64,000 bases of DNA from Anaeromyxobacteraceae bacterium (GTDB lineage Bacteria; Myxococcota; Myxococcia; Myxococcales; Anaeromyxobacteraceae). Below are positions 40,187-46,476 of the stretch, piece by piece; positions within the stretch are counted from its first letter, which is position 1; each line of letters starts with the position of its first letter. The notes below the pieces were generated by a model, which worked only from the letters and a program-made list of their open reading frames with translations, was not told the DNA's origin and made no database searches. Location: assembly GCA_047602405.1 (NCBI GenBank), contig JASGHJ010000002.1, positions 3,072,001 through 3,136,000 of the forward strand, written 5' to 3'. A program made the position numbers and the translations under genes.

Positions 40187-41739
40187 CCGCAGCCGGGACC
40201 TCCCCGGGCCGGCTCCGCCGCGCGCTCCGCGCCCTCCGCCCCTCCCGCTTCGAGGCGCCCATCGCCGGGGCGCTCGTGGTCGCGGCGGTGCTGCCGCTCC
40301 TCGGCGGCCTGTGGCTCGCCACCGACCTCGCGAAGCGCAACGTCGCCATCTCGCTCGAGCCGCGGGTGGTGGACCGCCTCGAGGGCATCCCGCTCCTCTA
40401 CGGCGACCTCTTCCAGGCGCGAAAGCAGCTCTACCAGGAGCAGACCCGCACGCTCTCGCGCTTCCTCCCCGAGGCGCCCGGCCGCGCGAAGGCGTACCTG
40501 GCCGAGGCCATCGAGCGCACCCCGCGCCTCCGGCGCGCGGCGTGGTACCGCGCGGACGGCACGCCGGTCGCCGAGGCCGAGGCCACCGCGCCCTTCGAGG
40601 GCGGGGAGTTCCGCCCCTGGACGGCCCGCGCGCGCCGGGCCGACGGCGGGCTCCTCGAGTGCACCTTCGCGGTCGAGGCGCGCTTCTTCGCCGAGGTGGA
40701 GGAGGCCCGCATGCTCGCCGAGCAGGTGCGCGGGCTCGAGCGCTTCTCGACCGAGGTGCCGCGCAGCTACCAGCTCGCGTTCTTCGTGCTCCTGCTCGGC
40801 ATCTCGGCCGTCGCGGCGGTGGTCGGCATCTGGCTCGCCCGCCGCACCACGAAGCGGGTCACCCGGCTCGTCGGCGCCGTGCAGCGGCTCGCCGCGGGCG
40901 ACCTCAACGTGCGGGTGGACCCCGACGGCGCGCGCGACGAGGTGCACGGCCTCGCGGTGGCGTTCAACGAGATGGTGCGCGAGGTGCGCGAGAGCCGGGA
41001 CCGGATCGTCTACCTCGAGAAGATCTCCGGCTGGCAGGAGGTCGCCCGCCGGCTCGCCCACGAGATCAAGAACCCGCTCACGCCCATCCAGCTCGCCTTC
41101 CAGCAGCTCGAGGCGCGCTGGAAGCAGTCGCCGGAGGCCTTCCGCAAGGGCGACGAGAAGTTCGGGAGGCTCGTCGAGGACGCCGGGCAGATCGTGCGCG
41201 AGGAGATCGCGACGCTCCAGCGCCTGGTGGCCGAGTTCTCGAGCTTCGCGAAGCTGCCGGAGGTGAAGCCGGACCCGGCCGACCTCGGCGACTTCGTCGA
41301 CGAGTTCCTGAAGACGAGCCCGCAGCTCGCCGAGCAGGCCCGGCTCGAGGCCGTCCACGCCGCGGGCCCCTGCCCGGTGCGGCTCGACCGCGCGCTCTTC
41401 CGGCGGGTGCTCGCGAACCTCTGCCAGAACGCGATCGAGGCCTCGCCGCCCGGGGAGGCCTGCATCCACCTCGGGGTCGCCCGCACCCGCGACCGCGGCG
41501 TCCTCACGGTGGCCGACGAGGGCCCGGGCATCGAGCGGGCGCTGCGCGAGCGCATCTTCGACCCCTACTTCACGACGAAGGGCACCGGCACGGGCCTCGG
41601 GCTCGCGATCGTGAAGAAGATCGTCCTGCAGCACGGCGGCGAGATCCAGTGCGGGGAGCGCCCGGGCGGCGGCGCGTCGTTCACCGTCGCGCTCCCGCTC
41701 GTGGCAGACTCGCCGCCGGCCAGTGACCAGGGAGGGTGA
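40183..41739 (+). CDS. Membrane sensor histidine kinase (HAMP-HisKA-HATPase, NtrY-like)
   Basis: 2 TM, HAMP DEVHGLAVAFNEM, H-box WQEVARRLAHEIKNPLTPI, NLCQNA, DEGPG, FTTKGTGTGLGL. Confidence 0.93.
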   Translation: MTAAGTSPGRLRRALRALRPSRFEAPIAGALVVAAVLPLLGGLWLATDLAKRNVAISLEPRVVDRLEGIPLLYGDLFQARKQLYQEQTRTLSRFLPEAPGRAKAYLAEAIERTPRLRRAAWYRADGTPVAEAEATAPFEGGEFRPWTARARRADGGLLECTFAVEARFFAEVEEARMLAEQVRGLERFSTEVPRSYQLAFFVLLLGISAVAAVVGIWLARRTTKRVTRLVGAVQRLAAGDLNVRVDPDGARDEVHGLAVAFNEMVREVRESRDRIVYLEKISGWQEVARRLAHEIKNPLTPIQLAFQQLEARWKQSPEAFRKGDEKFGRLVEDAGQIVREEIATLQRLVAEFSSFAKLPEVKPDPADLGDFVDEFLKTSPQLAEQARLEAVHAAGPCPVRLDRALFRRVLANLCQNAIEASPPGEACIHLGVARTRDRGVLTVADEGPGIERALRERIFDPYFTTKGTGTGLGLAIVKKIVLQHGGEIQCGERPGGGASFTVALPLVADSPPASDQGG

Positions 41740-41744
41740 AGGCG

Positions 41745-42521
41745 ATGGCTCAGGAGCTCCTCGGCAGGATCGCGCTCGTGACGGGCGCGAGCGCGGGGTT
41801 CGGCGAGGCGACCGTGAGGCGGCTCGCCGCGATGGGCGCGAAGGTCGTCGCCGCCGCGCGGCGGCGCGACCGGGTGGAGGCGCTCGCCCGCGCGGTCGGG
41901 GACGACGCGGTGCTGCCGCTCGCGCTCGACGTCCGGGACCGGGCCGCGGTGATGGCCCTGCCGGCCTCGCTGCCGGCCCCCTTCGCGGCGGTCGACGTCC
42001 TCGTCAACAACGCCGGCCTCGCCCTCGGCCTCGAGCCCGCCCACCGCGCCTCCCTCGACGAGTGGGAGACCATGATCCAGACCAACTGCCAGGCGCTCGC
42101 GACCGTCACCCGCGCCTTCCTGCCCGGCATGGTCGAGCGCGGCCGCGGCCACGTCGTGAACCTCTCCTCGGTCGCCGGCACCTACCCCTACCCGGGCGGC
42201 AACGTCTACGGCGCGACGAAGGCCTTCGTGCACCAGTTCTCGCTCAACCTCCGCGCCGACCTCCTCGGCACCGGCGTGCGCGTCACCTCCATCGAGCCGG
42301 GCATGGCCGACACCGAGTTCTCGGTGGTCCGCTTCCAGGGCGACCGCGCGAAGGCCGGCAAGGTCTACGAGGGCATGACCCCGCTCTCCGCCGACGACGT
42401 CGCCGACGCGATCGCCTGGGCGGTCACGCGGCCGCAGCACGTGAACGTCAACACGATGGAGCTCATGCCGACGCAGCAGGCCTTCTCCGCCTTCGCGGTG
42501 TCGCGCAAGCCGCAGCCCTGA
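41745..42521 (+). CDS. YdfG-like NADP-dependent short-chain dehydrogenase
   Basis: VTGASAGFG, NNAGLALG, YPGGNVYGATKAF, IEPG. Confidence 0.9.
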   Translation: MAQELLGRIALVTGASAGFGEATVRRLAAMGAKVVAAARRRDRVEALARAVGDDAVLPLALDVRDRAAVMALPASLPAPFAAVDVLVNNAGLALGLEPAHRASLDEWETMIQTNCQALATVTRAFLPGMVERGRGHVVNLSSVAGTYPYPGGNVYGATKAFVHQFSLNLRADLLGTGVRVTSIEPGMADTEFSVVRFQGDRAKAGKVYEGMTPLSADDVADAIAWAVTRPQHVNVNTMELMPTQQAFSAFAVSRKPQP

Positions 42522-42531
42522 GCCAGCCGGG

Positions 42532-42650
42532 CCCCCGGCACCGTCCGTCCCCCGGCACCGTCCGTCCCCCAGCACCGTCCGTCCCCCAGCACCGTCCGTT
42601 CCCCAGCACCGTCCGTTCCCCAGCACCGTCCGTTCCCCAGCACCGTTCGT
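42532..42650 (+). repeat. Tandem repeat, 7 x 17 bp (YCCCCRGCACCGTYCGT)
   Basis: Units start at 42532, 42549, 42566, 42583, 42600, 42617 and 42634, with no spacers. Confidence 0.95.
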
Positions 42651-42660
42651 CCCGAGCGTA

Positions 42661-42680
42661 GGGCCCGCGTCAGCGGGCCC
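42661..42680. other. Short perfect hairpin
   Basis: GGGCCCGC-GTCA-GCGGGCCC. Confidence 0.5.
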
Positions 42681-42731
42681 GGAGACGAGGGACGCCCGTG
42701 CTGATCCCCTCTCCTGGTGGCGTTTCCGATG

Positions 42732-43001
42732 GGCCGCCTCGCGGGGTCTCTCCGCTCCTCGGGCGCAAGGCAAAGGCCCGCCGCGTCGGGGAGCCTGGAG
42801 GCGGCGCCGAGGACGGGCAGGCCGCGGCACCACCACGCGCGCCGGGCGAGACGGGGGAACGTTGGGGAACGTGGCAGAAGCGCGTCGATGATGGAGGTGC
42901 GGTGCTGGCCGCCTCGCCCGTCACGCTTGGTGCAGATCGCGGCTCCGATCTCGGGCGGGCCTGCCGGCGCCCTGCGGGGCGGAGAGACCCCGCAGGCGGC
43001 C
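42732..43001 (+). repeat. Structured ~270-bp element with terminal inverted repeats, copy A (MITE/REP-like or ncRNA)
   Basis: Ends GGCCGCCTCGCGGGGTCTCTCCGC and GCGGAGAGACCCCGCAGGCGGCC are near-perfect complements; homologous to the reverse complement of 43097-43338. Confidence 0.75.
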
Positions 43002-43096
43002 TACGAAGCGTGGAGATGTGGTGAGGCCGAGACACGAGCGGGGGAGCGACGAAGGTATCGCCGGGCCTCTCCCGCCCCCACGCCACCGCCCCTCGC

Positions 43097-43338
43097 GGCC
43101 GATCGCTGGGCCTCTCCGCCCGGAGGGCCCTCGGCAGGCCCGCCCAACATCGGAGCCGCGATCTGCGCGGAGCGTGCCAGGCGAATCACGGTGCCCTCAC
43201 CTCCACGGTAAGGTCCCGCTCGCCTGGCACGCGTGGACGCGCCGCGGGTCACCACCAGCTCCGTACCGCCTACCAGGATCCCCACGCGGCGGGCCTTTGC
43301 CCAAGGGCCCGAGGACGGAGAGGCCCAGCGAGGAGGCC
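43097..43338 (-). repeat. Structured ~242-bp element with terminal inverted repeats, copy B (inverted relative to copy A)
   Basis: CGCTGGGCCTCTCCG and CGGAGAGGCCCAGCG termini; internal 13-bp stem GCGTGCCAGGCGA/TCGCCTGGCACGC; two exact 18-nt matches to copy A. Confidence 0.75.
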
Positions 43339-43460
43339 GCCACGGTGACGACGGCAGGACCGCCGGGGAAGGATCGAACGATCCGGCTGGCCGCCACGGT
43401 GACTGCGGCAGGACCGCGGCAGGACCGCCGGGGAAGGATCAGTCGATCCTGCTGGCCGCC
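43335..43460 (+). repeat. Imperfect ~54-bp direct repeat overlapping the sigma factor 3' end
   Basis: GGCCGCCACGGTGAC...GCAGGACCGCCGGGGAAGGATC...GATCC.GCT at 43335-43388 and 43389-43453; the second copy has an extra 11-bp duplication. Confidence 0.85.
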
Positions 43461-44339
43461 TCGGCGCCGTCCGGCCAGCCGATCTGCTCGGCGACCGGCT
43501 CGAGCTCGCGGCGGAGCTTCTCGAGCGCCCGGATCTCGAGCTGGCGGGCGCGCTCGCGCGAGAAGCCGAAGTGGTGGCCGAGGTCGCGCAGGGTCTCCTT
43601 GCCGTCGCCCATGATGCGCGCCTGGATGATGTGCCGCTCCCGCGGGTCCAGGCGGGCCATGGCCTCCTGGATGCGCCGGGCCACGAGGGCCTCCTCCTCG
43701 GCGCGCGCGAGCTCCTCGTCCTGGGGCTCGGCCTCGGCGGGGGTGAACTCGAGGTGGGTGCTCGTGCCGTCGGCGACCGGGGCGTCGAGGGAGAGGTCGC
43801 GCCCCTCCATCCGCTGCTGCATCTCGACGACGTCGGACGGGCGCACGCGGAGCTTCTTCGCGACGAGGTTGACGTCGAGCCCCTCCGACTCGAGCCCCTT
43901 GCCGGGCGTCATGCGCTCGATCTCGTGCCGGGTGCGGGCCAGCGAGAAGAAGCTTCCGCTGGGCCTGGGTCGTCCCGATCTTCACGAGCGACCAGGACTT
44001 CAGGATGTGGTTCTGGATGTAGGCGCGGATCCACCAGACCGCGTACGAGATGAGGCGGATCTCCTTGTCGGGATCGAACTTCTGGACCGCCTTCATGAGG
44101 CCGATGTTGCCCTCCTGGATGAGGTCCGCCATGCGCAGGCCGTAGGAGCGGTATTCGAAGGCGACCTTCACCACGAAGCGCAGGTTCGCCTCGACGAGGC
44201 GGTGGGCCGCGCGGCCGTCGCCCTGGTCGCGGAACTGGCGGGCGAGGCTCCGCTCCTCCTCCACGGTGAGGAGCTTCACGCGGTTGATCTCGCGGAGGTA
44301 CTGGTCGAGCGTGCTCGTGCTGGTCGGCGTCCGGTTCAT
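43439..44339 (-). CDS. RpoH/sigma32-family RNA polymerase sigma factor (frameshift near 43950, probable sequence error)
   Basis: [40 protein letters not shown], RpoH box TTQAQRKL, region 4 [27 protein letters not shown]. Confidence 0.92.
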
Positions 44340-44375
44340 CGAGCCTCCTTGGCCATCCTGGACCGGCCCGACGAG

Positions 44376-44391
44376 AGCAACCCCCGTGCCG
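44376..44391 (-). promoter_or_regulatory. Sigma54-type -24/-12 promoter upstream of the RpoH-family gene
   Basis: Minus strand CGGCACG-GGGG-TTGCT versus consensus TGGCACG-N4-TTGCW; 36 nt upstream of the ATG. Confidence 0.72.
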
Positions 44392-44691
44392 GGCGGCGTT
44401 CGTCCTCCCGACGGCGGTTTCGAGGCCTCCCGCGGACGCGCCGTATGTCACTCCCTGTAACTTCGTCCGCCGCCGCGCCGTAACGCCGACAGGCCCGCCC
44501 GCCGCGGGGGCCGTCGGCCCGGCGCCCGCACGCCCCGTCACTGGGGGTGCGATACCTTCCTACCGATCGCGCCCGGGTAGGGCCCCGGCAGGCGCAGGGT
44601 GCGCGGGGTGGGGAGCGAGAGGCCCCCGCGAGCACGGCGTGCACGCGACGGGACGCCCGCCCGTGTGGTCCGGTGCGCCCCACCCGGCCGG

Positions 44692-46476
44692 TCAGGCGGC
44701 GAGCGGCAGCAGCCCGCGCGCCTGGCGGCGCACCATCGAGGCGTAGAGCCCCCCGCGGGCGACGAGCTCGGCGTGCGTGCCGGCCTCGGCGACCCGCCCG
44801 TCGGCGAGCACCACGATCCGGTCGGCGGTGAGCACCGTCGAGAGCCGGTGCGCCACCACCAGCGTCGTCCGCCCCGCCGCGACGCGGTCGAGGGCCTCCT
44901 GCACGAGCGCCTCCGACTCGGCGTCGAGGGCCGAGGTCGGCTCGTCGAGGATCAGGATTGCCGGGTCCTTGAGGAGGGCCCGCGCGATCGCGATGCGCTG
45001 GCGCTCGCCCACCGAGAGCCGCCCGCCGCGCTCGCCGACCCGGGTGTCGTAGCCCTCCGGGAGGCGCGACACGAAGCCGTGCGCGTGGGCCGCCCGGGCG
45101 GCGGCCTCGACCTCGGCGCGGGTGGCGCCGGGCCGGCCGTAGGCGATGTTCGCGTGGACCGACTCGTCGAAGAGCAGGGGATCCTGCAGCACCGTGCCGA
45201 TCTGGCGGCGGAGCGACAGCTGGCGCATGCGGCGGACGTCGACGCCGTCGATCCGGATGCGCCCCTCGGCGGGGTCGAAGAAGCGCTGCACGAGCTGCAC
45301 GAGCGTGGACTTCCCGGCGCCCGACGGGCCCACGATCGCGACCCGCTCCCCCGCCCGGACCTCGAGGTCCACCCCGCGCAGGATGGGCGGGCGGCCCGGG
45401 TGCCCGAAGTGGACGCCCTCCCAGGCGACGTCGCCGCGCAGGCCGACCACGTCGACCGCGTCCGGCGCGTCCCCGAGCGAGTCCTGCGCGTCGAGGATCC
45501 GGTAGACCTCCTCGGCGGACACCCGCGCGGCGCGCACCGTGCGGTACGCCCCGGCGAGGCCGAGCACCGGGCCGAACAGCCCGCCGACGTAGCCGAGGAA
45601 CGCGACGAGCGTGCCCACCGAGAGCTCGCCCCTCGCCACGAGCACGCCGCCGTAGGCGAGCGCCGCGAGGCGCGCGGCGAGCTGCACCGCGCTCTGCGCC
45701 GCGGAGACGCCGGTGTCGGTGCCCACGCCGCGCACGACCACGCCGTTGGCCTCGCGCACCGCGCCGAGGAAGCGCTGCTTCTCGGCGTCCTCCATGGCGA
45801 AGCTCTTCACGGTGAGGATCCCCGAGAGGACCTCGTTGAACCGCGAGTAGATGCTCACCCACCGCTCGAGGAGGGCGCGCTCGCGGCGCGCCTGGCCGGG
45901 CGCGGCGGCGCGCGCCACCAGCGCGGGGATCGGCGCGAACGCGAGCACGAGCAGCGCGAGGCGCGGCTCGAGGCGGAACATGATCACCGTGGAGAGGACC
46001 AGGTAAAGGAGGGCGGGGGCCGTGGAGAACGCGAGCTCGGCGAGCGCGGCCACCAGCCCCTGGATCGAGCGCTCCAGCCGCGTCATCGTCGCGCCCACGC
46101 CCTCGGCGCGGTGGAACTCGAGCGGGAGGCGGTGGAGCCGCCCCACCGTCGCCTCGGTGAGCCGGTAGTGGACGCCGATGCGCGTCCGCCAGGTCAGCCA
46201 GCCGGAGAGGGCCTGCATGACCTCGCGGGCGAGGCCGACCGCGGCGAGCGCGGCGAGCGCCCCGAGCGCGGGCCCGAGGCCGCCGGCGCCGAGCCGGTCG
46301 AGCACGCCGCGCAGGGCGAGCGGCTCGGCCGCGCCGGCGAGCGCGACGCCGGCGGCGAGCAGGAGGATCGCGACGACCGACCCGCGCGACGGCGCGAGGA
46401 ACTCGGCCGCGCGGCGGAGGCCGGGGCGGGTGTGGGCGGCACGCCCACTTGCACCTTCACGATTGGTGATATCCAC
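44692..46476 (-). CDS. ABC exporter, fused permease/ATPase (MsbA-like)
   Basis: N-terminal TM domain; GPSGAGKS, LSVGERQR, ILILDEPTSALD, VAHRLST. Confidence 0.93.
   Translation of the reverse strand: MDITNREGASGRAAHTRPGLRRAAEFLAPSRGSVVAILLLAAGVALAGAAEPLALRGVLDRLGAGGLGPALGALAALAAVGLAREVMQALSGWLTWRTRIGVHYRLTEATVGRLHRLPLEFHRAEGVGATMTRLERSIQGLVAALAELAFSTAPALLYLVLSTVIMFRLEPRLALLVLAFAPIPALVARAAAPGQARRERALLERWVSIYSRFNEVLSGILTVKSFAMEDAEKQRFLGAVREANGVVVRGVGTDTGVSAAQSAVQLAARLAALAYGGVLVARGELSVGTLVAFLGYVGGLFGPVLGLAGAYRTVRAARVSAEEVYRILDAQDSLGDAPDAVDVVGLRGDVAWEGVHFGHPGRPPILRGVDLEVRAGERVAIVGPSGAGKSTLVQLVQRFFDPAEGRIRIDGVDVRRMRQLSLRRQIGTVLQDPLLFDESVHANIAYGRPGATRAEVEAAARAAHAHGFVSRLPEGYDTRVGERGGRLSVGERQRIAIARALLKDPAILILDEPTSALDAESEALVQEALDRVAAGRTTLVVAHRLSTVLTADRIVVLADGRVAEAGTHAELVARGGLYASMVRRQARGLLPLAA

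Follow-up and report, generated by a model that had tools for sequence, protein, structure and literature searches.

The closest described relatives of the element reported here are the REPINs, or HH/TT dimers of REP sequences. As set out in two accounts of these repeats (PMC3116915, PMC3733652), the spreading unit is an extragenic, non-coding inverted doublet that can be a heterodimer and has a variable spacer. Compensatory changes, two alternative folds, a preference for the 3′ ends of genes and the lack of a target duplication are further properties given there, and our element has all of these in common with them. A second point of comparison is provided by the ends of IS200/IS605 elements and the substrates of TnpA-REP (PMC8266576, PMC6006769). 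These are imperfect hairpins with conserved mismatches or bulges and unlike left and right ends, again as found here, and HUH enzymes read such irregularities in REPs and in the ends of IS608 (PMC8266576). MITEs with terminal inverted repeats resemble our element in being non-autonomous and intergenic with inverted ends. Lastly, Frpo1 and Frpo2 of F and their ColIb-P9 homologues are long non-coding stem-loops, like those below, in which promoter boxes are predicted to be assembled only in single-stranded DNA; they lie in the plasmid leading region, rebuild -35/-10 boxes and are shown to work (PMC9849209).

We have analysed a stretch of 64,000 nucleotides (the window; C2:3072001-3136000) from an Anaeromyxobacteraceae genome of 74% G+C. 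Within it two long imperfect hairpins point inward at each other. Arm A (42732..43001, + strand) is of a long-tip (A) type, and is downstream of and co-oriented with an SDR gene (41736..42521, +) that itself follows a histidine kinase gene. Arm B (43097..43338, - strand) is of a short-tip (B) type, and has the same relationship to an RpoH-like gene of the sigma-70 family (43439..44339, -). A first-pass annotation of the window had described two inverted ~250-bp copies at this place, and these are real. Arm A aligns with the reverse complement of 43097-43338 at 70% identity over 274 columns (E=7e-23), and the exact 18-nt matches are present at both positions given (42769-42786 with 43284-43301, and 42932-42949 with 43149-43166). 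The 95-nt spacer and the 28-nt difference in length are upheld, the difference being located in the hairpin tip (arm A 270 nt, arm B 242 nt). Identification of the flanks agrees with a position between the convergent 3′ ends of the kinase-SDR genes and the RpoH-like gene, and the lack of a credible ORF stands, since a codon-usage gene model calls no gene within 42732-43338.

The limits of the arms need correction, as the conserved unit reaches ~20 nt outside and ~25 nt inside each of them. The conserved outer end of arm A (42711..42731, +) is predicted to pair with the arm tail, lengthening the stem. That of arm B (~43339-43360) is followed by tandem re-duplications with a 65-nt period, the whole (43339..43464, -) reaching into the 3′ end of the RpoH-like gene. 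The gene-free spacer (43002..43096) comprises the purine-rich tail of arm A (to ~43026), a variable middle and the tail of arm B. Beside arm A is a small REP-like hairpin (42643..42695, +) belonging to a numerous family of its own (216 matches that form 195 clusters), and a 17-bp tandem array (42516..42670, +), a neighbour outside the doublet that resembles the start of that hairpin. The window contains two tandem stutters of repeat ends, one being the 17-bp array beside the small REP-like hairpin (42516-42695) and the other the 65-nt re-duplications at arm B's outer end (43347-43464), and similar stutters flank arms at C2:505k, 639k, 1208k and 2590k. Compared with a relative, the RpoH-like gene has a 2-nt gap that divides it between two frames; assembly indels are possible, as the Lon gene in locus L001 and other genes also change frame.

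How general is this structure within the genome? A profile search with nhmmer finds 22 arm copies, 20 of them near full length, at 14 loci. Three further arms have collapsed to their two ends, giving a family total of 15 loci: seven full doublets, two doublets with one collapsed arm, and six single arms. The repeat is ~650 bases in length and non-coding. The REPIN layout is therefore found as doublets at 9 of the 15 loci, with all 15 extragenic. The arms point inward in every case, every arm is downstream of and co-oriented with a gene, and all nine doublets have differing types of outer end on the two sides (judged by eye). In 6 of the 7 full doublets the spacers are 93-156 nt, gene-free and without a common gene remnant.

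The window locus is closely related to others in the family. Arm A is 90-91% identical to arms at C2:2325k and C2:2589k, and arm B 89% identical to one at C2:2590k, so that each has 89-91% identity to arms of distant loci as against 67-70% to its own partner. The stretch in common with the closest other locus, at C2:2589k, is 730 bp in length (42638-43367) and includes the small REP-like hairpin, which has been copied together with the doublet. The arms in the window are only 70% identical, as might be expected of a decayed local inverted duplication without function. That reading is ruled out by the existence of 15 loci, by covariation (below), and by an identity to arms 0.5-0.8 Mb away that is far above that to the partner; its probability is negligible. 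The earlier proposal of a dispersed, unannotated, non-autonomous and structured family is thus sustained by the profile search of the genome, by the covariation and by the lack of an Rfam match.

The placement of the loci is strongly non-random. All 15 lie between convergent genes, compared with 866 of 5195 gaps (17%) in the background by our own gene calls, and with 76 of 153 extragenic clusters for the small REP-like family taken as a control. Fourteen of the 15 are on contig C2 (p=0.007), where orientation relative to the replichores is unbiased (7 of 14 loci, by a hand count in which the partner side was assumed for single B or C arms). The neighbouring genes have no common function and none is a transposase. 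No target-site duplication was found at the outer ends of the seven doublets; the longest common repeat there is 3-7 nt, against a control mean of 4.9 and maximum of 9, with the outer ends defined approximately. No locus of the family lies within ~0.5 Mb of a dif-like site at C2:1702039.

Comparison with a close relative (G010, 92-98% identical in the flanking genes) reveals sites without the element. It is missing from all six orthologous loci tested, where G010 has 10-113 bp in place of the 540-1628 bp of our genome. The junctions show replacement of the whole gap rather than clean insertion, and repeated loss in G010 instead of gain in our genome is possible. A partial arm running in the opposite direction is retained by G010 at a seventh locus, and three others that are partial or variant are found elsewhere in it. 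In G010 the window's own site is without the RpoH-like gene: comparison of window 44336-46476 with G010:C8:60.3k shows that both this gene and the ABC transporter gene are missing there from the interval that separates the SDR gene from the next conserved one.

What is the unit that spreads? Over the seven doublets the left and right arm ends and their flanks co-descend (Mantel r=0.76, p=0.002), and in this the doublet corresponds to the replicating unit of the REPINs. The same test on whole arms is negative (r=-0.17) because inner segments have been exchanged between arm types. Taken together, we conclude that the doublet moves as a unit and recombines inside.

The pairing of one arm with the other is another matter. 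The two folds described in the first-pass annotation, a single rod or two separate domains, are real predictions, and the same alternatives are proposed for REPINs in the legend of Fig. S11 of PMC3116915. As RNA, the complete 607 nt are predicted to fold at -442 kcal/mol (z=-17.7, 20 shuffles), arm A at -191 (z=-6.9) and arm B at -169 (z=-8.6), with the rod ~60 kcal/mol lower. Yet the identity of arms within a locus is 0.718 compared with 0.713 between loci (permutation p=0.23), so that partners are no more alike than non-partners, and therefore the A:B rod is not maintained. With six of the 15 loci having a single arm, and no U-tailed terminator present, a regulatory RNA switch between the rod and the two domains is unsupported.

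On this basis we consider the element in the window to be one copy of a non-coding doublet, comprising two facing hairpins of 240-270 nt, that has spread as a unit into convergent gaps. It probably did so as folded single-stranded DNA by means of an enzyme encoded elsewhere, most likely of the HUH/Y1 kind, with tips that carry a predicted sigma-54-type box mostly complete only when folded. We would put the probability of this reading at about 55%. The element is an oversized REPIN-like element: it behaves like a REPIN, but fails in the size and tag of the unit and in the cognate RAYT. Its arms of 240-270 nt compare with REPs of 20-40 bp (PMC3116915, PMC3733652). End alignments inspected by eye reveal no conserved counterpart of the terminal GTAG/CGTC tetranucleotide of REPINs at the arm ends, and none of the 11 Y1 loci of the genome provides a cognate RAYT flanked by the repeat. 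Moreover, in contrast to REPINs, the family has 15 loci, all convergent, with a sigma-54-like box inside. It differs from IS200/IS605 in that the arms enclose no transposase gene, orientation is unbiased with respect to the replichores and the hairpins are some 10 times longer, and from MITEs in lacking a target-site duplication and in having arms that are each self-complementary and only 70% alike. No published description of the family was found in the papers searched, most subscription papers and supplements lying outside that search.

The hairpins themselves are well conserved in structure. Across 20 arms 95.9% of the cells are paired and 22 of 58 pairs have two-sided changes, a level reached in 0 of 500 shuffles, while control alignments that have been slid pair at only 37-47%. 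Covariation alone is no proof of selection, as palindromes can gain matched changes by self-templated repair, and the conserved irregularities are more telling. The mismatch at the tip position denoted -24 is conserved in 15 of 20 arms, a 4-nt bulge follows the -12 GC in the 17 arms of A and B type, a 6x3 internal loop is present in all 20, and there are two invariant unpaired adenines in the lower stem. We suggest that a single arm rather than the rod would be the recognised unit, because the pairs within arms covary while A:B complementarity is not maintained; the long rod would then be a by-product.

Do the arms act as DNA or as RNA? For 17 of 20 arms the predicted DNA fold of the tip is better on the antisense strand, and the other three have an intact GG at -24; as RNA there is no strand bias (12 of 20). 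Whole arms fold slightly better on the sense strand (15 of 20 as DNA, 20 of 20 as RNA), which has 62 G-T pairs compared with 14 A-C, a count biased by the choice of structure. The consistent preference as RNA, and the location of each arm downstream of and co-oriented with a gene, would fit arms that act as 3′-UTR hairpins to end or stabilise the two converging transcripts, the rod being a second possible fold. For REP dimers, transcription and a role at the RNA level have been proposed (PMC3733652). We regard this as quite unlikely. The gene pair of the window is kept in 22 other genomes of the genus, with an aligned gap of 29-460 nt compared with 956 here and no match to the element in any of them, and the adjoining genes have no common function. 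There is no U tract and no intrinsic terminator (short stem plus U run) in 42400-43600, the rod is not under selection, and an Rfam search (Rfam 15) gives nothing in the window at the gathering score, the best weak match having E=0.11. The doublet may nonetheless affect the flanking SDR and RpoH-like transcripts. For the spread of the doublet, DNA would be the substrate, since the upstream mRNA does not contain the strand on which the tip folds better.

Which enzyme might move such a substrate? An HUH/Y1 enzyme acting in trans is our best guess, because of the features of the substrate and the likeness to REPINs as these are presented in PMC3116915, PMC3733652 and PMC6006769. Eleven Y1/RAYT-like genes are present in the genome, none of which reaches the NCBIfam cut-off. 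The distance from the family to the nearest of them is 22 kb, and none is flanked by it or by the sister family described below. The arm profile gives no match in these 11 loci. Against 30 Y1 loci of the genus (the best per genome) together with six of our genome, it gives two weak partial matches (E 0.75 and 1.7). No transposase is found beside or between the arms at any locus, and in the Y1 loci compared the arms have no homology to the ends of an autonomous IS200/IS605 element. The mover would act in trans, and convergent gaps would be the only sites that are tolerated or targeted.

Other candidates were rejected. There is no DUF559 gene in the genome, and of eight copies of a group II intron reverse transcriptase none is adjacent to the arms. 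Retron msDNA is a single rod, and with no reverse transcriptase next to the arms this candidate was dropped as well. The cargo ORF at C2:278k, also considered as a mover, encodes a TPR protein. The intron copies (L073-L080) are seven that score identically and one that is internally deleted. Among the Y1 genes, one of 295 aa and RAYT-like is carried by 1.24-kb elements that are 97-98% identical and have short terminal inverted repeats (L069, L070, L071, L067 and C2:581.8k), and a divergent copy lies just beyond the end of the window. A multi-copy gene family of ~2 kb (C1:210k, C2:657.6k, C2:2927k and others) has several members directly behind a small REP-like hairpin, and is a possible REP partner.

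The same genome contains a sister family of ~690-bp non-coding doublets of facing long hairpins, at 16 loci of which 15 are convergent and 13 are on C2 (e.g. C2:1349684-1350375, 2877905-2878590, 2889777-2890444 and 3365488-3366193, plus 12 more). The interiors of the two families are unrelated, and their outer ends are similar, with a tandem stutter at the outer end. Bar two single matches with 2 mismatches, the sister family is confined to our genome and G010 among 363 genomes of the order. A near-identical IS110 gene is present in the spacer of 4 of the 16 sister doublets (C2:480k, 980k, 1994k and 2508k). Together with the similar outer ends and narrow host range of the two families, this transposase gene between the arms invites the view of the doublet as a MITE-like unit whose inverted ends are very long and whose movement depends on a recombinase, of the IS110 type or another; the absence of a target duplication, and the small REP found within 80 bp at 4 of the 15 loci of our family (p=0.04), would agree with it. 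We consider it very unlikely, since the four IS110 copies are near-identical while the arms flanking them differ by 10-30%, pointing to insertion into the spacer as a target, and no doublet of our own family contains an IS110. The IS110 element itself (L224-L227) has short sub-terminal inverted repeats, and looks like a site-specific insertion into the repeat.

We turn now to the tips of the arms, where a putative sigma-54 site is divided between the two strands of the hairpin. The genome encodes sigma-54. A scoring matrix was built from 136 upstream sites of the genome, seeded with the consensus and with the GG and GC fixed; this number compares with 69 sites on the opposite strand, and a strict pattern occurs 12 times at the canonical spacing compared with 1-2 at others. 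The comparison assumes which of the strands is read by sigma-54 at a given position. One and the same site, on the 3′ strand of the tip, gives the highest matrix score of the sense strand in 19 of 20 arms. The -12 GC is invariant in this box and correctly spaced, with the spacing of the partner strand 3 nt too long. The -24 GG is on the box's own strand in 4 of 20 arms, and on the complement of the partner strand in all 20. Thus the box is predicted to be completed only by the fold in 16 of 20 arms, and is intact in four, including arm B of the window. The conserved mismatch falls at -24, the bulge begins directly after the -12 GC, and the large internal loop covers the predicted start.

In arm A the predicted box (42918..42935, +) has the right spacing and an intact -12 GC, with the second G of the -24 GG replaced. 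Its partner (42838..42845, +) has a complement that supplies the missing GG, but lies 3 nt too far from the -12 GC of its own strand. The box is the best-scoring window of the arm, at 5.0 bits alone and only 7.8 with the partner strand. The predicted box of arm B (43163..43180, -; partner 8-mer 43224-43231) has the GG and scores 11.5 bits. The median of the hybrid, two-strand score is also 11.5 bits, reached by 3 of 120 shuffles (p ~0.025) and to be set against 3.45 bits in eight arms of the sister family as a matched control. Position -15 is off consensus in 17 of 20 arms, and the 20 arms are descended from few ancestors, and are not 20 independent tests. A loose scan of the genome for the split motif gives no overall enrichment (116 at the right spacing compared with 94-105), and a stricter one gives 29 intergenic matches compared with 7-12, the 29 being explained by the two repeat families (18) plus background. 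Judged from the sequence, we slightly favour the motif being a sigma-54 site, though it could be the site of another protein.

Whether the motif would work as a promoter on a single strand is a further step, and on balance we doubt that it does. If one strand became exposed, an arm folding on it would present the -24/-12 box with unpaired bases just downstream, and sigma-54 holoenzyme might bind there. The bound enzyme could possibly start an inward RNA, serving as a primer or as the mRNA of a cargo gene, for instance the TPR gene at C2:278-279k. An inward transcript requires the folded antisense strand, which is also the one that 17 of 20 tips prefer when folded as DNA. Against this step, wild-type sigma-54 requires an activator ATPase to open DNA (PMC7057263); an early-melted state at -12/-11 is described for sigma-54 initiation (PMC10083551). 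In its full form the idea would be that the arms are sigma-54 promoters existing only in single-stranded DNA. The -24 box would be split over the two strands of the hairpin, the bulge and internal loop would pre-melt the DNA downstream of -12, and each doublet would have one live promoter whichever strand is exposed, priming or expressing a selfish element; the module would be reused before four-helix-bundle genes across Myxococcales. We hold this to be rather less probable than its converse. It would differ from Frpo in that a -24/-12 box is used, the arms are chromosomal and paired and mostly lack a downstream gene, and the boxes are predicted only. The promoter step would be an add-on that is unnecessary for movement, because the sister family spreads in the same manner without the split box.

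The two-strand motif is not restricted to the doublets. It is also found in the hairpin leaders of genes encoding four-helix-bundle proteins (TIGR02436), eight in our genome, two in G010, and a single one in each of G253, G259 and G427, of which G427 belongs to a different family from our genome. Of 26 such leaders examined, two of them from our genome, most of the others lack such a hairpin, and in two members of the gene family without a hairpin the box is intact and close to the start codon. Our genome has four cassettes in which two four-helix-bundle genes converge, both of them preceded by a hairpin leader that carries the motif (L138:2330-3400, C2:7.6-8.6k, C1:316.5-317.6k and C1:2167.0-2168.1k); no published description of these leaders was found in the literature searched. 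Like the arms they are facing hairpins, with the same -24/-12-like two-strand motif and the same mismatch. Unlike them they are ~130 nt, precede real genes, and have no detectable sequence in common outside the motif. The 4-nt spacers and stems of the motifs are different from those of the arms, and the partner strand is correctly spaced, where that of the arms is 3 nt too long.

These cassettes raise the question of whether the doublet might be the gene-less remnant of a similar two-gene cassette. The arms would then be single-strand-specific promoter leaders, the spacer the residue of two convergent small genes, and the purpose the expression of cargo from exposed DNA. The layout of facing hairpins with a two-strand motif is that of the four cassettes, and the arm tails are purine-rich. 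An intact TPR gene with four homologues lies behind a B arm, and gene fragments or low-GC or orphan DNA are found on the inner side of several other arms. We nevertheless think this origin unlikely. The arm profile gives no useful match to the four-helix loci (E 0.42 at best), the gene-free spacers of 6 of the 7 full doublets have no common remnant, the ATG in the tail of arm A runs into a stop after one codon, and only 2 of the 4 cassettes lie in convergent gaps. The TPR locus is the only one with a cargo gene between co-oriented arms, where integron attC sites would belong to a cassette array with an integrase and R/L boxes. There (L001:3413-4618), the intact low-GC orphan gene is found inside the doublet, with a full B arm on one side and a partial, co-oriented arm on the other, in the manner of a captured cassette.

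Returning to the doublet as a mobile unit, it is at the least an undescribed, lineage-restricted selfish repeat some 10-fold larger than a REP, and the genome contains another family that is built in the same way. The two families offer 31 natural insertions that can be used to study the mover and the absolute preference for convergent gaps. Were the split box real, sigma-54 could be recruited by folded single-stranded DNA, for which we found no description in the papers searched. If the arms did act as promoters in single-stranded DNA, Frpo would have in them its first sigma-54 counterpart, and the doublet would be the first promoter-bearing REPIN-like element. An oligonucleotide of 140 nt would be enough to probe the split box. 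The present analysis adds the co-descent of the ends, the finding that the rod is not under selection, a sister family with the same layout, and a split sigma-54-like box common to a family of gene leaders.

How widely is the doublet distributed? The searches, which use patterns or BLAST and would miss distant relatives, suggest that the family is restricted to one lineage. A pattern search of 37 genomes of the genus and 92 of the family finds no true copies beyond our genome and G010. Single matches in G009, G014 and G020 look like chance, one of those in G009 having been checked with the profile. BLAST of 41 relatives and 401 genomes of the phylum, in which 17 and 2 candidates were scored per genome respectively, gives matches only in the same two genomes. 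There are no pattern matches in IMG/VR or in plasmids, and four pattern loci in JGI metagenomes, none with more than the pattern itself. A pattern scan of 185,579 GTDB genomes, allowing only 139-169 nt between the boxes and using a collection that may omit near relatives, finds two loci. One is a Streptomyces locus without a profile match, and the other is a true copy in Anaeromyxobacter (L037). Among 24 sequencing runs none contains this strain (best share 0.12), and in the four whose reads were mapped the element is almost without coverage. A short variant of the arm is present in one contig of sequencing run X7, and likewise in locus L034.
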